Origin: Anaeromyxobacteraceae bacterium
GTDB taxonomy: Bacteria; Myxococcota; Myxococcia; Myxococcales; Anaeromyxobacteraceae
Direction: 5' to 3'
Assembly (NCBI GenBank): GCA_047602405.1
Contig: JASGHJ010000002.1
Span: forward strand, 3,392,001 to 3,456,000
Length of the DNA stretch: 64,000 nucleotides
Of the stretch, positions 8,058 to 25,860 are shown one piece after another. How positions within the stretch are numbered: position 1 is the first letter of the stretch; every line of letters starts with the position of its first letter. The notes under the pieces are model-generated. The model was not told where the DNA came from and ran no database searches. It saw nothing but the letters and a program-made list of their open reading frames with translations. The position numbers were made by a program, and so were the translations under genes.

Positions 8058-8813
8058 ATGACGACCGCCTCCTGGAAGACGGCCCTCCTCACCCCGGTGC
8101 AGGTGGTGCTCACGCTCCTGCTCTTCGCGGAGGTGATCCTGGTGTGCGGCGTCGCGCTCGCGCCGGGGGTCGCGCTCCTCGGGTGGGCGGCCGACCGGCT
8201 CCCGGCGGAGGGGCTCCCCCGCGCGGTGGGGCTCGGGGTGGCCGGCGCCGCCGGCTACTTCGCCTTCGGGCTGTCGCTCCTCTTTCTCCTGCCGGTGGTG
8301 CGCTGGCTCACCTTCGCGACCGGCACGCCGGTCGGGCGCTTCCCGTTCCTGTCGATGGGGGCGTGGCGGTGGGCGAGCTACAACGCGCTCACGCTCGTGT
8401 TCCGGTTCGCCTTCGTCAACTGGGTGCGGGTGACGCCGTTCCTGCCGCTCTACCACCGGCTCATGGGCGCGAGGATCGGCAAGCGCGTGCAGATCAACAC
8501 CGCGGTCATGGCCGACCAGAACCTCGTCGAGATCGGCGACGACTCGGTCATCGGCGGGGACGTCACGCTCGTCTGCCACGCCGCGGAGCGCGGGAAGCTC
8601 GTCACCGCGCCGGTGAAGATCGGCAGGAACGTCACCGTGGGGCTCATGGCGGTGATCTTCCCGGGCTGCACCATCGGCGACGGCGCGGTGATCGCCGCGG
8701 GGGCGGTGCTGTCGAAGGGCGCCAAGGTCGGCGCGGGCGAGGTCTGGGCCGGCGTGCCGGCGCGGCGGGTGGGCGGGAAGAGGAAGGCTCCCACTCACGA
8801 CGAGCCGGCGTAG
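8058..8813 (+). CDS. Membrane-anchored hexapeptide-repeat (left-handed beta-helix) acyltransferase
   Basis: Two N-terminal TM segments, then GARIGKRV, IGDDSVIGG, VKIGRNVTVG and WAGVPAR. Confidence 0.85.
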   Translation: MTTASWKTALLTPVQVVLTLLLFAEVILVCGVALAPGVALLGWAADRLPAEGLPRAVGLGVAGAAGYFAFGLSLLFLLPVVRWLTFATGTPVGRFPFLSMGAWRWASYNALTLVFRFAFVNWVRVTPFLPLYHRLMGARIGKRVQINTAVMADQNLVEIGDDSVIGGDVTLVCHAAERGKLVTAPVKIGRNVTVGLMAVIFPGCTIGDGAVIAAGAVLSKGAKVGAGEVWAGVPARRVGGKRKAPTHDEPA

Positions 8814-8855
8814 GCGTCCGGAGTACGCTGACGCCACGCACATTTCCGTTCCCTA

Positions 8856-9808
8856 TGTTGCCCACCCAAACCGCATCTCGGCCGTCAGCAGGTACGACGC
8901 GGTACCTGCTCGACGGGCTGTCGGTGATCGCTCAGTACGACACGGCCGGCACACGGCAGGCTTGGTACACGCAGTCGCTCGCGCGGATCGACGAGGTGCT
9001 GAACGTCGTCAACGCGAGCGGGAAGTTCTGGTACCAGAGCGACGCCCTCGGCTCCGTCTACGCGCTCACCACCCAGGGCGGGGAGGTCCGAGCTCGCGGC
9101 GGCTACGACGTGTTCGGGGAGTCGGTTGCCCTCTCAGGCACGGCCGTAGGACAGCCGTTCGGGTTCACGGGGCGGGAGCACGAGGCAGACTCGGGGCTCG
9201 TGTATGCGAGGGCACGCTATGCCCGCCCCGCTTCCGGTCGCTGGCTGGCGCCGGATCCCCTCGGGTTTGTCGACGGACCCAATAGATACGCATACGTACA
9301 GGCCAATCCGACCATCTATACCGATCCTAGCGGGCAGGTCATATTCGTGGATTCAGTCCGCAAAGGCATTGGCATGTTCGCCGCTTCAGCGGAACAGGAA
9401 GCAGGCATCCGATTGATCGGAGTCGGGCTAGTGGACTTCAACCCGATGATCGTCGCGTACGGTCTCTCTCACCTGATGACCGGCATCTATGTCGAGGTTC
9501 TCAACGGGGGGTGTCCAGCGCTCACTCCTCAGGGACGAGGACTTTGGGTCGAGGAGCGGGTCTCCAACCTGTTCCGCAGTGCTGGGTACGTAGTCCAGCG
9601 AGGTCGACGCATCATGACCCCGTTCGGCGAGCGCGTCGTCGACCTTGTCGTGTTCCGTCCTGGAACCACCGTTCTCAAGTTCGAAGACGCGCTCTTCACG
9701 ATCGAGGTCAAGTTCGGCCGATTCGCGAAGTGGGACAAGATTCAACGAGTCAAGGATCTGTTCATCGAGAACGTAAGCAGTGTCATCCACTTTGTTGTCC
9801 AAGGGTGA
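8856..9808 (+). CDS. Orphan Rhs repeat-associated core plus C-terminal PD-(D/E)xK nuclease-like toxin (headless, possibly silent)
   Basis: DALGSV, YDVFG, FGFTGRE, YARARY, DPLG..DGPNRYAYVQANP..DPSG. The C-terminus reads EERV..ERVVDLVV..IEVKFG. The start is uncertain and there is no clear RBS. Confidence 0.8.
8887..8910 (+). repeat. 24-bp palindromic site A at the 5' breakpoint of Rhs cassette 1
   Basis: AGCAGGTAC-GACGCG-GTACCTGCT; an identical copy in inverted orientation lies at 12350-12373. Confidence 0.85.
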
Positions 9809-9814
9809 GCTGCT

Positions 9815-10219
9815 ATGAGCGTGTCGCGCGTGATCGGGAAGGAATTGGAACGAGCCCTCGCCCCGCACGGGTTTGCGCGGCGTGGCTTGACTTTCGTCCT
9901 ACACAGGGAGCCCAACTACTGGGTCGTGCGCGTGTTCAACGACAAGAGGCGAGGCGTGGGGCTTGTCGTGAGGGTTATTTCCGAGCTCGAGTCGCGCGCC
10001 AAGGGCTTACCTGTCGCGGATCCCTTCCGAGACGGTGTTTCAAACTGGGAGTCGGGGCCGGCCTTCTTGTCGGCGCCTGAGTTTGCCGAGTGGGAGATTG
10101 TGTCCAACGAAAGCGATGCGGCTCTGCTCGCCACTCGCTGGGCAAGATGGGTGACGGAAGTCGGCTTCAGATTCTTCTTGGAGGGCTCTCGCGAACTGAA
10201 TGAGCGTTATCGCGCTTAG
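9815..10219 (+). CDS. Putative immunity protein for Rhs toxin 1
   Basis: 134 aa, 6 bp downstream of the toxin stop, lower GC; assigned by position. Confidence 0.65.
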   Translation: MSVSRVIGKELERALAPHGFARRGLTFVLHREPNYWVVRVFNDKRRGVGLVVRVISELESRAKGLPVADPFRDGVSNWESGPAFLSAPEFAEWEIVSNESDAALLATRWARWVTEVGFRFFLEGSRELNERYRA

Positions 10220-10350
10220 GTCCACACTCCAGGACAACCGGCTCGTCGGCATCGCGCTGCCGAACGGCGTCTCGAATGCCTTCGAGTGCGACGCCAACGG
10301 GCTGAGGACGAAGAAGACCGACTCGACCGGAACGACGCGATTCCTGGTGC
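10220..10350 (+). pseudogene. Rhs/YD-repeat remnant
   Basis: QDNRLVGIALPNGVSNAFECDANGLRTKKTDSTGTTRFLV looks like the Rhs segment that normally precedes GTTRYLLDG. It ends in a degenerate site (10329-10344). Confidence 0.7.
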
Positions 10351-10396
10351 AGAACCGCGCTATTGAGTCCTGTGCGCCAGATGAAAGGCGCTAGGT

Positions 10397-10422
10397 CGAC
10401 CGGTACCGCGTCGTACCGGTCG
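10397..10422 (-). repeat. Palindromic site C with the same 6-bp spacer and different outer arms
   Basis: CGACCGGTAC-CGCGTC-GTACCGGTCG on the + strand; perfect 10-bp arms; the 16-bp core is identical to sites A and D. Confidence 0.8.
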
Positions 10423-10669
10423 TGGTCACTAAGTCTGAGCCTGCCCCTTCTTACGCTTGGTGAGGTACCTGTCGAGGAACAGGCCCGCCGTGCCAAGCCA
10501 TGAGGCCCCTGGCCAACACCCAAAGCCGGCGATGCTGGCGTTGGAGGTGGCCTGGATAGGCTCCGGCCGCTGCGGTCAGGAATGCCAAGAGCGCGAGAAT
10601 CGTTAGCCAGCCAGAATGAGTTGTGGGCAGCGTCTTGCCGGCGTTTATCGGGTGTCAGCCCGGCCCGAC

Positions 10670-11359
10670 TCACGCTCGCACAACCCACCGGACATTGCTG
10701 ACCCGCAGAGACTCGACTGCCGTCTTGAATTCCTGTGACGCACCGATCCGGAACGTGTATCCCTCATAGAACAGGTCTCCGGCGGGGACGATGGTCGTCG
10801 TTGGGCCATCGGGTACATTAGGATATCCGCATTCTGCGCACTCTTTCGCTGCCCTTTCGATGGCCAGCAGGGGTTCATAGTCGGGGATGAGTTCAACGTA
10901 GTCGGCTGCCCCACCACCCACCATGGTAGTGGGGCACATCGCGAATCCGGATAGCCCATTTACCTGTTCTGCCACCCGTCGTGACACCACCAGTGTTGCG
11001 GGAATCGTCCAGATGAAGTCCGCAAGCGTCCGGGGCGCGTCCACGATGGTCGCCGGCACCCAGGCATCGCCGGGGCGAAGATCAGGCTGAGTAAGATTCG
11101 CCTTAGCAGTCGCTGTAGCGACCCGTGCAGAGAGAGCCCGGAACACCTCCGGTTGCACGGGACTCGGGTCGTTCAACTCGGGCCATTCTAATAGCTCGGT
11201 CGGCAGAGGCACCGGGATCACACGCCTTCCGGCCCAGGTGCGTCCGCAAACCGGACATTCGACTCCCGGCATCCCTATCGCATGCTCGGCCTTGCCAGCG
11301 CGGCCACCTACGCCTGCCGACCCGGGCTCAATTAGATACGAGTGCCCTGATGGGAGCAT
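10670..11359 (-). CDS. Double-CXXCG motif immunity protein (SitI6-like)
   Basis: HAIGMPGVECPVCGRTWAG, LRPG and ECAECGY. It lies directly downstream of a DUF2380-like toxin and has a GAGG RBS. Confidence 0.75.
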   Translation of the reverse strand: MLPSGHSYLIEPGSAGVGGRAGKAEHAIGMPGVECPVCGRTWAGRRVIPVPLPTELLEWPELNDPSPVQPEVFRALSARVATATAKANLTQPDLRPGDAWVPATIVDAPRTLADFIWTIPATLVVSRRVAEQVNGLSGFAMCPTTMVGGGAADYVELIPDYEPLLAIERAAKECAECGYPNVPDGPTTTIVPAGDLFYEGYTFRIGASQEFKTAVESLRVSNVRWVVRA

Positions 11360-11436
11360 CGTGTGCCCTCACTCTCTACCCCTACAGCGAGTTCGGTTGC
11401 TTACCCACCTAAGTCCCGCGGCGCACCGCCGCTCGC

Positions 11437-12380
11437 TTACCGCAAGGTAACTACGTCGAGCGCTTTCCACAGCTCGAGGCCGAACTCTCGCATCATCTTC
11501 GTGAGCTGCACCAACACCTCCACCCGCGTAGCGTTCGGTCGGGCCCGGAAGAACTCGCGCCACACCACGTTCCAGCTGTCGGGTCCGTTGTGTATGCCGA
11601 CGCCCTTCTTGTTGTGCAGGCTGGTCGGAAGTCGGATCTTGTACTTTTCGATATCAATGCCAAGCCGCTGGAAGTCTCTCCTGAATTCGCGCGGGAGCAG
11701 ATGATGCTCTTGCGGCTTCCCCATCCATTCTCCGCACCTCGCGCACATCAGGACCATTTCGATGCCGCCGAACAGATAAGCAATGCCAAGCTCGGCGAAG
11801 TCCTCGTCGATGCCGCTGTCGAACGTCGAGGAGACAGCCAGGTACCTAATGCCCACAGTCATGAATGAGATGCCGGCCAGACACGTAACAGCGCGTCCCA
11901 GCGCGATGGCGTACACTGAATACCGTCCGGTCGGATCGCTGAGGAGCGTCGGCCGTCCAGTGACGTAGCCATACAGACCAGGGCCGTCCACGTCGCCGAG
12001 CCGATCCACCTGCGACCATCGGCCGAAGGCCGCCTGCATGTAGCGGTCTCGGTAGTACGTCAGCCCCGAGTCCGCCTCGTGCTCCCGCCCCGTGAATCCG
12101 AACGGCTGCCCGACGGCCGTCCCCCCGAGCGCGACGGACTCCCCGAACACGTCGTAGCCGCCGCGCGCGCGGACCTCACCGGCCTGGGTGGTGAGCGCGT
12201 AGACGGAGCCGAGGGCATCGGCCTCGTACCAGAACTTCCCGCTCGCGTTGACGACGTTCAGAACCTCGTCGATCCGGGCGAGACTCTGCGTGTACCAAGC
12301 CTGCCGCGTGCCCGCCGTGTCGTACTGAGCGACCACCGAGAGCCCGTCGAGCAGGTACCGCGTCGTACCTGCTGATGGCC
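11437..12380 (-). CDS. Orphan Rhs core plus DUF2380/TIGR02269 (SitA6-like) toxin domain (headless)
   Basis: The core is near-identical to cassette 1 up to EHEADSGL, then DPTG. The C-terminus reads HHLLPREFRRDFQRLGIDIEKY..H..IH..WNVVWREFF..MMREFGL. The ORF track extends it to GTG 12462. Confidence 0.8.
12350..12373 (-). repeat. 24-bp palindromic site D at the 5' breakpoint of Rhs cassette 2
   Basis: Its reverse complement equals site A exactly. Confidence 0.85.
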
Positions 12381-12530
12381 CGGGTGAGCCCGCAACTGGC
12401 AGAGTCGGCCAGTTCGACTCGAACCCAGACCTTCCCCAGGAGCTCTCCGCAAGGACCCCCACGGCAAGATTCTAGCCCCTGTTCGTGCGGCCTTTGCCCT
12501 TGAGTCCGTCGAGCAGCAGATGCACTCGCG

Positions 12531-12562
12531 AAAAATGGAAGGGGCCCGCCGAGGCGGGCCCC
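12531..12562 (-). terminator. Intrinsic terminator after the uracil permease
   Basis: GGGGCCCGCC/GGCGGGCCCC stem followed on the minus strand by TTCCATTTTT. Confidence 0.7.
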
Positions 12563-20660: not shown

Positions 20661-20759
20661 GGTGCGGTCCTCGGTGGGCGGCGGGCTTCGTGCCCGCTCA
20701 CCTTCCTGGACAGCGCATCGGGTCGACCTTGACGGGGCCCCTTTCCGGGCTCCCTCGGC

Positions 20760-21327
20760 TCACTCGAGCAGCCCCTGCTCGCGGGCGAGCTTGCTGAGGC
20801 GCTCCTTGAGCCGCTCGTAGCGTTTCGCGAGCGTCACCGCCGTCGCCGGGCTGCCCCCCTCCGCGAGGACGTCCGCGATCTCGTCCCAGGAGAGCTCCTG
20901 GTCGGCGCGCAGGAAGAGGCAGCGTCTGCTCGTCCGGCGTGAGGAGCTTCCTGAGCTCGAGGACGCGCTGGCGGCGCCGCTCCACCTTGACGGCCGAGGC
21001 GGTGCGCAGCGACTCCGCGAGCCGCGAGGCCTCGCCCGTCTCGAAGCGCCGGACCTTCCGCGCGTGCGCCTGGTTCTTCAGGTTGAGCACCACGTTGCAG
21101 GCGAGGCGCAGGCACCAGGTCTTGAGCGACGAGCGGCCCTCGAAGCCCGGGAGGCCCTTCCAGACGTTCTCCGCCCAGATCGAGAACGCGTCCTTCACGT
21201 CGTCCTCGTCCCGGAGCACCGGCCGCAGGTAGCTCAGCACCGTCGGGCCGAGGGCCTCGATGACCGCGGTCGCGGCCCCCCTCGCGTCACCGGACGCGAG
21301 AAGGGTCTGGATGTGGGGGAGGAGCAT
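20760..21327 (-). CDS. ECF sigma factor, copy 1, with a +1 frameshift at about 20919
   Basis: DEDDVKDAF..FEGRSSLKTW. After correction it continues LLFLRADQELSWDEIA..KRYERLK, collinear with the paralog at 26211-26780. The ATG overlaps the upstream TGA. Confidence 0.88.
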
Positions 21328-22871
21328 CAGTCGCCGATCTTCGTGTAGCAGACGCCACCGACCGGGGTTCCTTCCAATACGTCGTCGCACCATGCTGGCG
21401 CGTTGGCGTCCGCACAGCAGGCAGGTGGGCCTGGCAAGAACCCCACCGCATCCAGAGCTGGGGCCTTCTTCTCGTCGCCCCTCCCGTCAAGCCTGATGCT
21501 GAGGACGTTGGGGCCCGCGCCGCCTGCCGCTTCCTTCTGCAAGATCACCGGATAGACCTCAAGCCAGCCGAAGCCCTCGTCTCGCCGCAACGTGCTCCAC
21601 CTGAGGGGGACCTCAACCGGCGAACCCGCACCATCCCGGACGAATACGGTCGTCTCGTTACCGGGCTTCGGCGGTCGACCGTCCTTGTCAGTCCGGAACC
21701 TGATCATCGCCGTGAACTTCGAACCCGACGGCACGCTGGCTTTGATATCGCGAAGGACCACCTCCACCGCTGACTTCTCTCCGAGTTGCACCGTCCCTTG
21801 AGATGGTGCCGTCGGCGGAGGGCCGCTCTCGCCACCGCAGACGCTCGCCGCCAAGACCATTGGATCATAGGTCCCGACGCACGCCGACCTTCGATCGACA
21901 CCAGCCTTCGGCCACTTGCAGTGCGAATTCCTGAGCGCCGCCTTCGTACCGCGCTCGATCAACTGCGTTGGCAGGGCCGGCTGATTGGCCGAGGACCAAG
22001 TCTCCTCGAGGTTGACCAGGCGCATTCCGTAAACGAAGAGCGGCGGATACGTCTGAGCCGTGCTGCAAGAGGAATACGGATTGCCAGGACACACCCGCTG
22101 GCCATTCGCAGCGAACCAAGTCGACGCATCTTGACACCGGCCGAGTTGACGGACCCATCCCGCGCCATCGAAGTCAATGGTCCGACCAAGAGCCACGTTC
22201 GGCGGGTACCAGTTGCTCTTGTCCAGATCGAACCCGACGGGCAGGTTGCTACTCAGCGTATAGAGCGGCTGTGGTGAGGCAAACAGGTCCCCGAAGAAGA
22301 CTCCTTCCGGCTGATCCAATGCAAACGCCTCTCCCGGCGAAACACTCAGGCTGGCTCCGCGAAGCGAGATGGGTTGGCGGGCGTGGCGCTGGTTCGCGTG
22401 AGCCAGAAGACACGCCGTAATCCTCGCCCTTGAATCTGCATCCGCGAGGGGCTTCCGACGTGTCCCACCCAAGCCGAACCGCCCCTCCCAAGAAAGGCCG
22501 CCATATGAGACCCACTGCCCTTGGTCATAGGCGCACCGGACGAGGTAGGTCATAACTTCCGCTGAGCCCAAATGCGCGGTGTCACCGAACCACTTGACGA
22601 AGCCCGCGTTCGCGGGTTCGAAAGCGTAGATCTCCCAAGCCTTCTTGCCCTGATCGTAAACGACCTCAAGGCCACCGATGGACGCCAGGCTCGTTCTCAG
22701 TGCGCTCGCGGAAAGGTCGAGGCTATTACGGCCCATCTCCAACCGACTGTAGGTGGCACAAGGCGCTTCTCCCTCCTTGGTCTTCTTCACATCAGCAGCG
22801 ACGTCGTCCGCCACTGTCACCGCTAGCAGAAGTGCCACCACGTTCATCGGTCTCATGATTTTCCCCCACAT
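21327..22871 (-). CDS. Secreted Cys-containing myxobacterial protein of unknown function (lower GC)
   Basis: Hydrophobic N-terminus; YLVRCA..EGRFGLG..ITACLLAHAN..ISLRG..EGVFFGDLF is a motif series I recognise from uncharacterised myxobacterial proteins. Confidence 0.65.
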   Translation of the reverse strand: MWGKIMRPMNVVALLLAVTVADDVAADVKKTKEGEAPCATYSRLEMGRNSLDLSASALRTSLASIGGLEVVYDQGKKAWEIYAFEPANAGFVKWFGDTAHLGSAEVMTYLVRCAYDQGQWVSYGGLSWEGRFGLGGTRRKPLADADSRARITACLLAHANQRHARQPISLRGASLSVSPGEAFALDQPEGVFFGDLFASPQPLYTLSSNLPVGFDLDKSNWYPPNVALGRTIDFDGAGWVRQLGRCQDASTWFAANGQRVCPGNPYSSCSTAQTYPPLFVYGMRLVNLEETWSSANQPALPTQLIERGTKAALRNSHCKWPKAGVDRRSACVGTYDPMVLAASVCGGESGPPPTAPSQGTVQLGEKSAVEVVLRDIKASVPSGSKFTAMIRFRTDKDGRPPKPGNETTVFVRDGAGSPVEVPLRWSTLRRDEGFGWLEVYPVILQKEAAGGAGPNVLSIRLDGRGDEKKAPALDAVGFLPGPPACCADANAPAWCDDVLEGTPVGGVCYTKIGD

Positions 22872-22905
22872 TCAGCGAACACACCGAACCTGCATGGCGA
22901 CCGCG

Positions 22906-25860
22906 TCATTCTCGCCCGAGTTCCAAGCTGGTCTTCCTCGCCTCCTCCAGGCCGGGTTGTGATGAAGCCGCTTCACCCCACATCCCCAGAAGCAAGCCGA
23001 TGTTTCGGCGCGCCCTCTTCGGCATGCCCTCCCGCGCCTGCGCCTTCGCCAGCGCGAGCAGAGCGCGCGGGTATTCCCAGCTCGGGTAGTTGAGTGGAAA
23101 GCCGAGGAACCTGGTCAATACCTCGACTGCCTCAGCGTTCCTCCCCTGCTCCACGAGCATCTCGCCGAGGACGAAGGCCGGGTGCGGCATCGCCGGGTCC
23201 ACGCTGAACGGCGTGTGCCTGACAACTGCGTGGAGCTCCTCGATCGCCTTCACACGGTCGCCCTGCCTCCAGTGCACGATCGCGCGATAGGTGGCCGCTC
23301 GTGGTGAGTCGACGGGCAGGTATGCCGCGAACTCGGCGGCGCGCCGGAGATCCCCCAGGTACGCTAGGTGGGGTGCGACGTGGGTCACGAGCGCGGGGTC
23401 GAGCTCGAGCGCGAGGAGCGCCTCGCGATGGGCCACATCTGCGTCGCCCGAGCCTGCGACCGCCTCGAACCACCCCGCCTGGAGCCACGCGTCCTTGAAA
23501 CCGTGGATAGTCTCTCCGGTCTTGGCCAGCTCCTCCCAGCGTCCCTCCTGGACCTGAAGCAGCACGCGCATGAACGGACCGAAGCTGTTCAGCGATTGCC
23601 CCTCGGACATCTGGGTCACGAGGCGGTGCAAGCGGTCGCGCTCGCCCGCGTGAAGCAGCGCCATCGCGAAGAACTGGGTCCCCGCCGCGTCCGCTCCTCC
23701 GGCCGACGCCTTCTCGCAGGTCGCGAGCGTCGAGGGAGCGCCGGCCCAAAGCCGGATGAAGCAGAGGCCAGCCCTCGTGGCGGGGGACTCCGGAAGGGCC
23801 GCCACCCTGGTCTCGAGCGCCGCGAGTCCATCGCGATCGTCGAGCGCGCCGAGCGCGATAGCGAGGTGCTCGACGCCCTCGGGCCACGCGGGGTCGAGCT
23901 CGCTCACTCGTTCGAAGATCGGAGCCGCCTCGGCGAACTCATCGCGGTGGAATGGGACCTCGCCCGCGCGACGCCAAGCGAACTTGTCGTCACCCGCCCT
24001 GATCGCGGCCTCCTTCAGGAGGCGCTTCGCCTCCACGTCCTTGCCGTCGAGGAACGCCGCCCAACCCTTCACGCGCTGCTGATGACTCGGAGGAATGCGA
24101 TCGAGCAGGCGCAGGGCGGGCTCGAGCGCGCTTCTCTGCTCCGCCCGGCTCAGCCCGAGCGAGTAGGAGACCTCGGACGTCAACAGGTGCGCGAGTCCGA
24201 ACTCCGGATCGATCGCGGTGGCCCGCTTGAACTCCTCGAGGCAGGGTCCATAGCCGACGAAGAAGCCCGACTGCTCGACGCAGGCCTGACCACGGGCGAA
24301 GTGCGACCAGGCCTCGAGGCTCCTGGTGACCGACCTCGCGAGTGCGATGGAGGTCTCCCGGATGGCCTCGGGTGCCTCACCGAGGCCCAGCCGCACTCGC
24401 TCGGAGACACGGTCCACAAGGTCTGGGAGCCTCTCCTTCTCGGTCTCCTGCTCACGCAATGACAGGAGGCGAGCGCCGGAACTTGGGTCCGTGACCCTGA
24501 CCTCCGCGACGTACAGCGCACCCAACCTTCTGAGGATCGGCACCACCACTGCCCGGGCGCGAACTCTTTCGGCAGCGGCAGTGGCCCTGTCGGCGTCGAG
24601 GGGTTCTCCCTTCTGGAAGGCGTCTCGTCCAAACAGGTCTATGAGGCGGACGCGGGGCAAGACGTCGATCTTGCGCGACTGCTCGAGCGACGTGGCCAGC
24701 ATTCCCGAGAGCCCATCAAGTTCGCGGTCGCCCGTGCCGTTCTCCACGTCCGCTACCGCGAGCACGATCCGCTCGTCCGCGGCCGGCGCGATCGTCGCCT
24801 TCCGCGCCATCCTGACCGCCACCCCCAGCGCCGCCGCCGCGATCACCACCGCCGCGATCGCCGCGATGCCCGCGACGCGCGTCCGCCACCACGGCGCGGG
24901 CTCCCGCCGGCGCACCACGACGGCCTCCGGCCCCGGCGCGGACTCGCCCGCGCCGCGCAGCACCTGGCCGACGAGCTCGAGCGCGCGCAGGACCACGCCG
25001 CCATCGCGCGGCCGGTGCACGGGGTCCTTCTCGAGCATCGTCGCGACGAGCTCGCCGAGCGCGGGCAGGCCGGCGACCTCGAGGTCCGGTGCCGGCGACG
25101 GGCCGGTGACCTCGCCGGGATTCTCCGGCCGGAACGGCAGCCGGCCGGAGAGCATCCGGTAGAGCACGACGCCGAGCGCGAAGACGTCGGTGCGCTCGTC
25201 CTCCGGCGCGCCGGTCCACTGCTCGGGCGCCATGTACGCTGGCGTGCCGCCCTCGGTGCGCTTCAGGCCGAACGCGTGCGCGAGGCCGAAGTCGAGCACC
25301 TTCACGCCGCCGTCGCTCGTGAGGAACACGTTCCCGGGCTTGAGGTCCCGGTGCACGACGCCGCGCGCGTGCGCGTGCGAGAGGCCGCGCGCGATGCCGG
25401 TCGCGATCCGCACGGCCTCGACCGGCGGCACGACCCCGCGCTCGACGCGCGCCTGCAGCGTCTCGCCCTCGAGGAGCTCGAGCACGAGGTACGGGCCGTG
25501 CTCGGAGCGGCCGAGGTCGAAGAGCGTGACGATGTTCGGGTGGGCGAGCCGCGCCGCGGCCTCGGCCTCCTCGAGGAGTCGCTCCCGCCTGAGTTCGTCG
25601 CGGTGACCCGTGCGAACGGCCTTCAGCGCGACCTTGCGCTTCAGCTCGGAGTCCTCGGCCTCGAAGACGACGCCGAACCCGCCGCGGCCGAGCTCCCGGA
25701 TCAACCGAAAGCGACCGATCCGCTGGCCGGGGACGAGCGCGACCTCCCAGCCGCCGCCGTCCGGCGGCACCTCGTCCGCGGCGAGGTCCTTGAGGAGCGC
25801 GGACAGCGTCCCGGGCAAGGGCCCCGGCCCAGGTTCCTCCGTGGCGGGGTCCTCCTTCAA
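22906..25860 (-). CDS. Hanks-type Ser/Thr kinase with a TM helix and an extracytoplasmic TolB_N-like/TPR region
   Basis: LGRGGFGVV, VALK, HRDLKPGN, DFG and GTPAYMAPE; TM GIAAIAAVVIAAAALGVAV; VLAVADVEN; helical TPR-like C-terminus. Confidence 0.92.
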   Translation of the reverse strand: MKEDPATEEPGPGPLPGTLSALLKDLAADEVPPDGGGWEVALVPGQRIGRFRLIRELGRGGFGVVFEAEDSELKRKVALKAVRTGHRDELRRERLLEEAEAAARLAHPNIVTLFDLGRSEHGPYLVLELLEGETLQARVERGVVPPVEAVRIATGIARGLSHAHARGVVHRDLKPGNVFLTSDGGVKVLDFGLAHAFGLKRTEGGTPAYMAPEQWTGAPEDERTDVFALGVVLYRMLSGRLPFRPENPGEVTGPSPAPDLEVAGLPALGELVATMLEKDPVHRPRDGGVVLRALELVGQVLRGAGESAPGPEAVVVRRREPAPWWRTRVAGIAAIAAVVIAAAALGVAVRMARKATIAPAADERIVLAVADVENGTGDRELDGLSGMLATSLEQSRKIDVLPRVRLIDLFGRDAFQKGEPLDADRATAAAERVRARAVVVPILRRLGALYVAEVRVTDPSSGARLLSLREQETEKERLPDLVDRVSERVRLGLGEAPEAIRETSIALARSVTRSLEAWSHFARGQACVEQSGFFVGYGPCLEEFKRATAIDPEFGLAHLLTSEVSYSLGLSRAEQRSALEPALRLLDRIPPSHQQRVKGWAAFLDGKDVEAKRLLKEAAIRAGDDKFAWRRAGEVPFHRDEFAEAAPIFERVSELDPAWPEGVEHLAIALGALDDRDGLAALETRVAALPESPATRAGLCFIRLWAGAPSTLATCEKASAGGADAAGTQFFAMALLHAGERDRLHRLVTQMSEGQSLNSFGPFMRVLLQVQEGRWEELAKTGETIHGFKDAWLQAGWFEAVAGSGDADVAHREALLALELDPALVTHVAPHLAYLGDLRRAAEFAAYLPVDSPRAATYRAIVHWRQGDRVKAIEELHAVVRHTPFSVDPAMPHPAFVLGEMLVEQGRNAEAVEVLTRFLGFPLNYPSWEYPRALLALAKAQAREGMPKRARRNIGLLLGMWGEAASSQPGLEEARKTSLELGRE

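Follow-up and report, generated by a model that had tools for sequence, protein, structure and literature searches.

Two headless Rhs cores, in opposite orientations, begin within an identical palindromic site in the window, that is, the whole 64,000-nucleotide stretch of DNA that was analysed. The question this raises is whether the shared position is a point at which toxin tips are exchanged and, if so, by what machinery. The features of the locus are as follows, with their strands.

8777..12533, no strand assigned: low-GC island that the sister genome G010 lacks, flanked by acetyltransferase-like and uracil-permease-like genes
8872..8877, plus: hexamer 13 nt before site 1, weakly similar to the XerC-element module's last repeat core (module described below)
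8887..8910, plus: site 1, perfect 9-bp arms; headless core 1 begins here
8888..9808, plus: headless Rhs core 1 (TIGR03696) with a tip that is likely a PD-(D/E)XK/Tox-REase-like nuclease
9815..10219, plus: DUF4304-like gene, likely immunity 1 (features 0.93, structure TM 0.73)
10230..10348, plus: upstream Rhs core piece, 109/119 nt identical to contig L191, ending just past site 4
10329..10344, plus: site 4, degenerate as a palindrome; native-type copy of the joint (GTTRF)
10345..10396, plus: 52-bp linker, possibly a collapsed element end
10397..10422, minus: site 3, perfect 10-bp arms; the cassette 2 inversion likely has its left joint here
10430..10669, minus: small hydrophobic ORF, apparently frameshifted, ending ~10 nt before site 3; from translation only
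10670..11359, minus: SitI6-like double-CXXCG gene, likely immunity 2; PF09535 over cut-off, TIGR02264 under cut-off
11437..12372, minus: headless Rhs core 2 with a DUF2380/SitA6-like toxin tip (TIGR03696, DUF2380); frame open to a GTG at 12462
12350..12373, minus: site 2, perfect 9-bp arms; the cassette 2 inversion likely has its right joint here
12502..12516, minus: 15-bp remnant whose translation, LLDGL, resembles a further core's start; read from the sequence directly, chance level not computed

The two 24-bp copies, sites 1 and 2, are identical when checked at these coordinates, and share with site 3 the asymmetric 6-bp centre GACGCG, which is unchanged in all four sites. The two cores make up an inverted repeat of 319 bp at 91% identity, whose start lies 7 bp beyond the 24-bp site. 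The first-pass annotation had described the common start of both cores, the arrest of their similarity a few bases beyond the site, a third site with the same spacer and different, perfectly paired arms, and a degenerate fourth; all of these were recovered, the fourth as native Rhs coding sequence ending the 119-bp upstream core piece.

Both cores consist of the C-terminal Rhs part without the delivery N-terminus, intact relatives extending further upstream; an in-frame ATG for the core 1 ORF is present at 8855. Judged by their sequences, both cassettes appear to be orphan Rhs modules, with a variable tip followed by a putative immunity gene: a nuclease-like tip and a DUF4304-like gene in cassette 1, and a DUF2380 tip and a PF09535 gene in cassette 2. 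The nuclease-like identity of tip 1 is a lead from the Atlas with a score <0.9, and its candidate immunity gene gave no match in a Pfam search. A promoter scan of the locus found none, and an Rfam search gave no match. The island flanks are 92–93% identical to G010, against which the island ends clean; the label acetyltransferase-like comes from a Hexapep match and uracil-permease-like from reading of the ORF. A tRNA-type att at the right end was considered and rejected, as the T-loop-like stretch near 12420 has no other match in this genome.

The four sites are real and not chance. Perfect palindromes with a 6-bp spacer and arms of at least 9 bp are common (309 in the genome), so it is the common centre and the position of the sites, not the palindromes alone, that beat chance. 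The 16-bp centre occurs three times in the 6.16-Mb genome, always inside the island, and still three times when one mismatch is allowed. Genome-wide, 4 of 15,150 GACGCG hexamers have arms of at least 9 bp, and three of these four are the island sites. Among the matches listed from an exact scan of genome contigs, the same 16-mer was found at 80 unrelated loci with no arm of 9 bp or more (5 bp at 55 loci, 6 at 16, 7 at 6 and 8 at 3); Rhs is encoded at the 16-mer in one of the 80, the others being chance matches. The abundance of palindromes would suit a reading of the sites as chance or as an assembly fold-back, but we consider this exceedingly improbable. Cores that are 91% identical and carry different toxins exclude a fold-back, three of the four long-armed GACGCG sites lie inside an island that ends clean against G010, and the same start recurs in other contigs.

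The site itself is ordinary Rhs coding sequence (DSTGTTRYLL), and the start at its GTTRY codons was found again in two other contigs, L190 and L191, and in 11 further proteins, with unrelated upstream flanks. At the DNA level, the headless cores of L190, L191 and site 3 begin 5–6 nt before GG(T/A)AC, each behind unrelated DNA. Of 57 proteins, 12 have their start no more than a few residues from GTTR, or 11 if the window's own is set aside, and their flanks are of at least five kinds; the sample favours such proteins because the protein queries started at the site itself. From the joint onward P0011 and the L191 protein are 96.7% identical, but P0011 has a different upstream end. Other orphans of the family begin elsewhere (L031, L033, the first core of L191 and the window's upstream piece). 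Searches of the order and the phylum (363 and 401 genomes) gave no further genome in which a core begins at GTTR, and a search of representatives gave no new leader-plus-GTTR protein, starts near the position in distant cores being possible alignment edges. Plasmids matched neither the core nor XerC at the limits used; viral contigs matched neither the core, the 20-mer nor the module pattern, and gave one uninformative XerC fragment; the leader, searched as a separate short protein, had no match. The comparison supports the view that headless cores in other contigs are joined repeatedly, and almost to the base, at the GTTRY codons. The claim that orphan cores break precisely at the site is thus borne out by L190, L191 and the 11 proteins, but does not extend to the several orphans that start elsewhere.

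Long arms, in contrast, are missing from the comparison contigs and from intact genes. They measure 5 bp at the L190 joint and 2 bp at the L191 joint, with no long dyad, and 1–2 bp in intact genes; inverted arms around 6–8 bp, the mark of tyrosine-recombinase sites, are thus present in the window but not conserved across copies, and the earlier expectation that paired arms would be preserved or covary across copies fails. Each perfect arm can be obtained by reverse-complementing the native flank opposite it, and flipping 10407–12364 in silico makes sites 2 and 3 ordinary joints like those of L190 and L191, so that both look like products of one inversion. Since the long arms are not kept outside this genome, the apparent covariation is more plausibly a mechanical consequence of that inversion. 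The perfect arms are probably scars left by a local inversion, not the form in which the site works: exchange between one joint's left arm and its neighbour's right arm would have flipped 10407–12364, perfecting sites 2 and 3, and site 1 would be a copy of site 2, made by conversion or duplication across the inverted cores. The perfect arms of site 1 require a second event beyond the inversion, a point against the explanation we favour.

A recombinase adjoining Rhs tips was found in relatives. There the gene order is XRE, CHC2 primase and a PRK01287-type XerC, then a conserved 120-bp module of four repeats fused to headless Rhs tips. The recombinase scores 296 bits against PRK01287 versus 94 bits against TIGR02249, both under cut-off, and its neighbours are CHC2/toprim primase and HTH genes. 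Among 36 XerC matches having at least 1 kb of flank, the module core lies no more than 3.5 kb downstream in 21 and is absent at 15, the latter counting against our explanation. Wherever DNA downstream of a module was available (17 of 17), an Rhs core follows ~115–120 nt past the first repeat, and the modules of held-out loci run into such a core in six of eight further cases. One circularly closed 8.4-kb contig (L355) carries all element parts, with the caveat that such a contig may equal a collapsed tandem repeat. In four loci (L351, L353, L354 and L359) the element lies between an intact rhs upstream and a module-fused, displaced tip, at one base-precise joint; rhs and tip share 16–20 of 20 nt after it and 5–11 of 30 before it. 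Three further orphans begin at that same base. High identity after the joint coincides in these loci with the conserved YLSPEP motif, an observation that counts against the explanation. Joints fall at differing Rhs positions between families, and their common part, merely GT and often GTACCT, is loose for an integrase, which likewise tells against it. Tips starting at one fixed position, as this element would have them, are found in the GTTRY family. Whether a recombinase co-occurs with orphan cores, as had been asked, thus has a divided answer: a tyrosine recombinase family adjoins Rhs tips in relatives, but is absent here.

The first-pass annotation had in effect taken the long palindromes as working sites, with arms covarying for recombinase symmetry and cassettes that continue to be excised, inverted or grafted in trans. 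The presence of three perfect sites sharing one asymmetric centre, for which an 11–6–11 geometry is possible, agrees with this, as do weaker dyads overlapping the module–Rhs joint in L353, L355, L351 and L363. P0017 reads SAGTTR like sites 1 and 2, but SAG is present in intact cores too. We judge the reading improbable: long arms are missing from both DNA-level joints in relatives, and one inversion explains sites 2 and 3. No full-length rhs of the same clade was found upstream, and the family has no further match in this genome (G000, 98% complete), where no primase was matched and Xer matches are of housekeeping type, at 37% identity. A recombinase of the associated kind is absent from the genome and from 230 kb around the locus, in line with the annotation's own statement that the window has none. 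Nothing here could therefore graft tips onto a full-length rhs today. Host XerCD/dif was rejected, as the dif-like site at C2:1702039 shares no arm sequence with the island sites; so, by reasoning, was a serine-recombinase crossover at the central CG, which would alter the hexamer.

The tie between the element and this family rests on translated leaders, which suggest a module joined to a GTTR core. Four GTTR-type proteins (P0016/26/31/32) carry a leader whose best match, in frame, is the L350 module (E 6e-5; top HMM hit), and P0140 has a module-like leader on a related core. In G005 a PRK01287-type XerC adjoins an orphan of the same family, which starts ~75 codons upstream, faces away from XerC and lacks the module. 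A module profile search of the flanks of the window's sites found none; in pairwise comparison with the module, the flank of site 1 is marginal (p about 0.04–0.05), that of site 2 has no match and the 52-bp linker is not significant. These results, like the start and orientation of the G005 orphan and its lack of a module, tell against our explanation. The hexamer before site 1 lies at the expected module-core distance, in the top 0.04% of positions. Read on the opposite strand, GACGCG gives the core that the element's repeats conserve, and it may serve for binding and not as the crossover region.

A route with no recombinase also has to be weighed, in which GTTRY is a hot spot of illegitimate joining (a 5-bp hairpin or microhomology, with template switching), RecA-type exchange then spreads a few old joints between cores, in the manner of classical C-terminal displacement, and fold-back copying perfects the arms here. 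The reverse-complement relation of every perfect arm to its opposite flank, the orphans that start elsewhere and the missing recombinase all speak for it, and Jackson et al. 2009 (PMC2935791), in the passages on arrays, account for these by homologous recombination. However, the L191 joint has no hairpin and its start position is unchanged, the joining points of five unrelated flanks agree to about one base or codon, and a second Rhs family repeats the base-precise pattern around an integrated XerC element with high identity over ~20 bp only. We regard this route as unlikely, though far from negligible.

What is observed, then, is fixed starts in unrelated contigs, the element's order, module and tip fusion in relatives, and the absence of its genes here. 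The island appears to be a relic of what is likely a site-specific Rhs tip-swapping system. The explanation in full, to which we give about an even chance, is that native Rhs codons form a recurrent cassette joint, likely cut and joined by XerC, and that the island is probably an inactive relic with cassette 2 inverted. A circle carrying module, tip, immunity gene, XRE, primase and XerC would integrate at a short core inside rhs, which would gain a new tip while the old one was left headless behind the module; repeated rounds and element loss would then give arrays of tips all starting at one position. Somewhat more tentatively, we propose that a widespread small integrative element (XRE, primase, XerC-like gene, four-repeat site) swaps tips at fixed rhs codons, with GTTRY as one target, and that the window records a cassette array and a wrong-sense exchange.

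In the Bacteroides rAID islands, a Xer-type recombinase adjoins toxin/immunity arrays. Similar neighbourhoods, with XerC/D recombinases beside poly-immunity loci (Zhang et al. 2012, PMC3482391) and Xer-type recombinases by toxin/immunity arrays (Martinkus et al. 2026, as cited in bioRxiv 10.64898/2026.07.13.738213), have been proposed to help accumulation; the passages concerned name no site, module or crossover, whereas here there are an rhs-internal joint, a four-repeat module and a primase-bearing unit. If true, our explanation would account for Xer-like genes adjoining toxin-immunity arrays.

Rhs C-terminal displacement, for which a circular intermediate was proposed (PMC2935791), resembles this locus in its headless core-tip fragments, low-GC tips and likely immunity genes. 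Those passages assumed homologous recombination and left open how Rhs and other polymorphic toxins gain tips and how the circle forms or moves. With a defined element, a defined DNA module, joints precise to the base and a circularly closed copy, one recombinase and two short DNA substrates would be enough to test a site-specific route directly; such a route, if real, would offer a natural recombinase for in-frame domain swapping.

A dif site near vgrG clusters is described in PMC10210955. Our site could share the geometry of Xer/dif and pdif modules, but has no XerC/XerD arms like those of the host dif. Integrative elements that replace the 3' end of a target gene carry a short core at both ends, the incoming 3' part restoring the gene and the old end being displaced. 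The proposed element would do likewise, except that its 3' end would bring in another toxin tip, so that the weapon would change on integration. Integrons combine a tyrosine recombinase, an adjoining multi-repeat site (attI/attC cassettes) and tandem cassettes starting from one base, often GT, all of which have counterparts here. Unlike in integrons, the XerC best matches PRK01287 and not an integron integrase, the unit bears a primase, the cassettes are in-frame gene ends and the L190 and L191 joints lack an attC-like hairpin; neither IntI nor attC hairpins were found. With its fixed rhs codons, the proposed element would thus be an integron-like engine for polymorphic toxins.

The four palindromic sites reported in the first-pass annotation lie where it had placed them, within an island (8777–12533) of lower GC content than its surroundings; the genome as a whole, G000, is 74% GC, which together with the SitA6/SitI6 matches suggests a myxobacterium-like host. 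The sister genome G010 lacks the island, and its flanks there are 92–93% identical. Each site surrounds the joint, the position at the GTTRY codons where headless Rhs cores start. The parts of the island, in window coordinates, are:

8887–8910, + strand: site 1
Cassette 1, + strand: headless core (TIGR03696), nuclease-like tip, DUF4304-like gene
After cassette 1, ending just past site 4: 119-bp core piece that normally precedes the joint, 109/119 identical to locus L191
10329–10344, + strand: site 4, degenerate
After the core piece: 52-bp linker, then site 3
10397–10422, − strand: site 3
Cassette 2, − strand: headless core, DUF2380/SitA6-like tip, double-CXXCG gene
12350–12373, − strand: site 2

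The tip of cassette 1 looks like a restriction-fold nuclease, an Atlas lead short of high confidence. At 11437–12372 a SitA6-like myxobacterial toxin domain and a SitI6-like partner are carried on an Rhs core, not a lipoprotein, which we read as tip exchange between delivery systems. An imperfect direct repeat of ∼10 bp at the island ends (8777–8786, 12531–12540) resembles a single copy in G010 and is a possible target duplication. Upstream of core 2, at 12393–12433, short inverted repeats overlap one another and a stretch resembles a tRNA T-loop; G000 has no second copy elsewhere. The same 34-bp context is found at C1:176602 and C2:7525 of G000, possibly a repeat or a contig overlap. By eye, 20698–25860 contains an ECF-sigma-like ORF, seemingly frameshifted near its end, then a lower-GC ORF and a Ser/Thr kinase–TPR-like ORF.

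G000, two contigs totalling 6.16 Mb, contains the 16-bp site centre three times, always inside the island. Arms, the inverted repeats around the GACGCG hexamer, reach at least 9 bp at four of the genome's 15,150 such hexamers, three being sites 1–3, and no arm exceeded 8 bp in 80 unrelated loci sharing the 16-mer, taken from at least 120 stretches listed. The two headless cores form a 319-bp inverted repeat, only 91% identical and with different tips. They are therefore not an assembly fold-back, the weakness foreseen in the annotation, and an artefact is very improbable indeed. As stated there, the window lacks a recombinase, the nearest tyrosine recombinase of G000 being 233 kb away. The proposed full-length rhs partner for grafting did not materialise, since G000 has no further member of the window's Rhs family. 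Host XerCD/dif was rejected; the dif-like site of G000, a single one at C2:1702039 near the GC-skew maximum, is unlike sites 1–4.

In intact relatives the motif KKxDSxGTTRYLLDG runs unbroken through the site. Loci L190 and L191 each hold a headless core that starts 5–6 nt before GG(T/A)AC, behind unrelated DNA, paralleling site 3 behind cassette 2. A profile made from 18 of 57 proteins served to score the whole set, the search queries having begun at the site. Twelve, one being the window's own, begin at GTTR give or take a few residues, with foreign or no sequence before it (Met alone in P0017); eight start at other internal positions, three resembling a native domain boundary; 22 matched the profile from its first position, and in 15 the start codon lies past the site. 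From the joint onwards P0011 shares 96.7% identity with the L191 protein, yet the upstream ends of the two differ. No more cores starting at GTTR were found in 363 order and 401 phylum genomes. The idea that orphans break precisely at the site holds for L190, L191 and the 12 proteins, but not for L031, L033 and others. The GTTR position is a real recurrent joint. A hot spot working there without a recombinase would accommodate the starts away from GTTR (L031, L033, the first L191 core, the window's upstream piece), but at least five kinds of flank precede the GTTR starts, and we consider it rather unlikely.

The long perfect arms proved to be neither required by the gene nor general, since they shrink to 1–2 bp in all ten upstream-intact copies caught by the sequence pattern, and to 5 and 2 bp in L190 and L191. 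Site 3 consists of left flank followed by the reverse complement of that flank; sites 1 and 2 are built likewise from right flank. When 10407–12364 is flipped in silico, hexamer to hexamer, sites 3 and 2 become standard forward joints whose arms measure 5 bp; one resembles that of L190 and the other that of L191. The simplest history starts from a forward array like L190/L191, in which a crossover involving the 5-bp arms of two consecutive joints inverted cassette 2. A second step, copying from site 2, would then have produced site 1; it fits the opening 40 bp of the inverted repeat, which are 39/40 identical (31–38 further in). The perfect palindromes are probably scars of local inversion and the island probably a relic; that they are working recombination sites, as first proposed, is improbable given the short arms and the restored joints.

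Recombinases were sought with a profile of G000's own enzymes, and then with the recovered XerC. The profile found one adjoining the G005 orphan and another in L226, both matching PRK01287 best, below its cut-off. The XerC-based searches gave loci carrying an HTH gene, a 1,000-residue CHC2/toprim primase and XerC, with an Rhs profile match in 7 of the first 19. A module follows downstream of XerC. Its core, CGCGTC, is A-rich to the left and G-rich to the right; weaker copies stand at about +33 and +67, and the last is at +100/101. The pattern is present in 21 of 36 XerC matches with at least 1 kb downstream (four with shorter flanks and a duplicated row left out); among these, loci fetched after the pattern was defined gave 6 of 17. 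In all 17 modules with downstream DNA, an Rhs core follows 115–120 nt after the first copy; in held-out loci, six of eight profile-found modules run into an Rhs core and two into other ORFs. Rfam has no family covering the module/joint region.

L355 (G332:C443, 1–8557) is an 8,557-bp, circularly closed contig with a 141-bp terminal repeat, carrying the module, an Rhs tip, further genes, HTH, primase and XerC, possibly the free form of the element. Such a circle would integrate at a short core in rhs, replacing the tip. The expected layout, an intact core upstream of the element and a module-fused tip downstream, is seen in L351, L353, L354 and L359, where core and tip share 17, 20, 18 and 16 of the 20 nt after the joint, 5–11 of 30 before it and 12–28 of the next 40. 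This 20-nt stretch also encodes a conserved motif. Three further orphans begin at the same base, behind unrelated DNA.

Tandem XerC elements, 8–9 kb apart, occur in L393 (G367:C111) and L394 (G433:C1). In L370 (3700–3900) and L371 (3860–4000) the module joins toxin-like ORFs directly, with no visible Rhs core. After the XerC stop in L348, L352, L363 and L365, the module-to-tip frame opens, by eye, with a signal-peptide-like stretch, so that displaced tips may need no Rhs cage for export. Headless starts form a second cluster near a YNGFNQ motif, ∼75 codons upstream of GTTR (L031 3240–3260, L191 ∼830, P0012, P0025, P0030, P0034, P0044 and the module end of L378, a module-fused start).

The putative link from the module to GTTR cores comes from translated protein leaders. 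When the L350 module is translated in frame, it aligns with a 74-residue leader common to P0016, P0026, P0031 and P0032 (E 6e-5 in a search of 42 loci); a profile of this leader, run across every locus, also ranks that module first (12.7 bits). In P0140 a module-like leader precedes a related core, here at a different position. Reverse-complemented, the GACGCG hexamer of the window's sites gives the module core. A module profile found nothing in G000. The site 1 flank is a marginal match (p 0.04–0.05), with one module-like core at the expected distance (top 0.04% of positions), and the site 2 flank and 52-bp linker gave no score. Joints vary among Rhs families, with little in common beyond GT or GTACCT.

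Jackson et al. 2009 (PMC2935791), on Rhs C-terminal displacement, proposed a circular intermediate and accounted for the arrays by homologous recombination. XerC/D adjoining poly-immunity loci are noted in PMC3482391, and a 2026 preprint (bioRxiv 10.64898/2026.07.13.738213) cites Martinkus et al. 2026 for Xer-dependent systems beside poly-immunity arrays. The accessible portions of PMC8125069, PMC10210955, PMC8987985, PMC8138268 and PMC13617354 do not describe a primase–XerC Rhs element, and one with its joint inside rhs was not found in the literature covered, mostly outside subscription papers. The annotation's observation stands, as does half of its interpretation: the joint recurs and relatives have a plausible recombinase for it, co-occurring with Rhs tips, although this XerC and primase are absent from G000; the perfect palindromes are improbable as working sites. 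We give a site-specific element acting at the joint an even chance. The known systems for comparison are integrons, rAID and integrases that replace 3′ ends.
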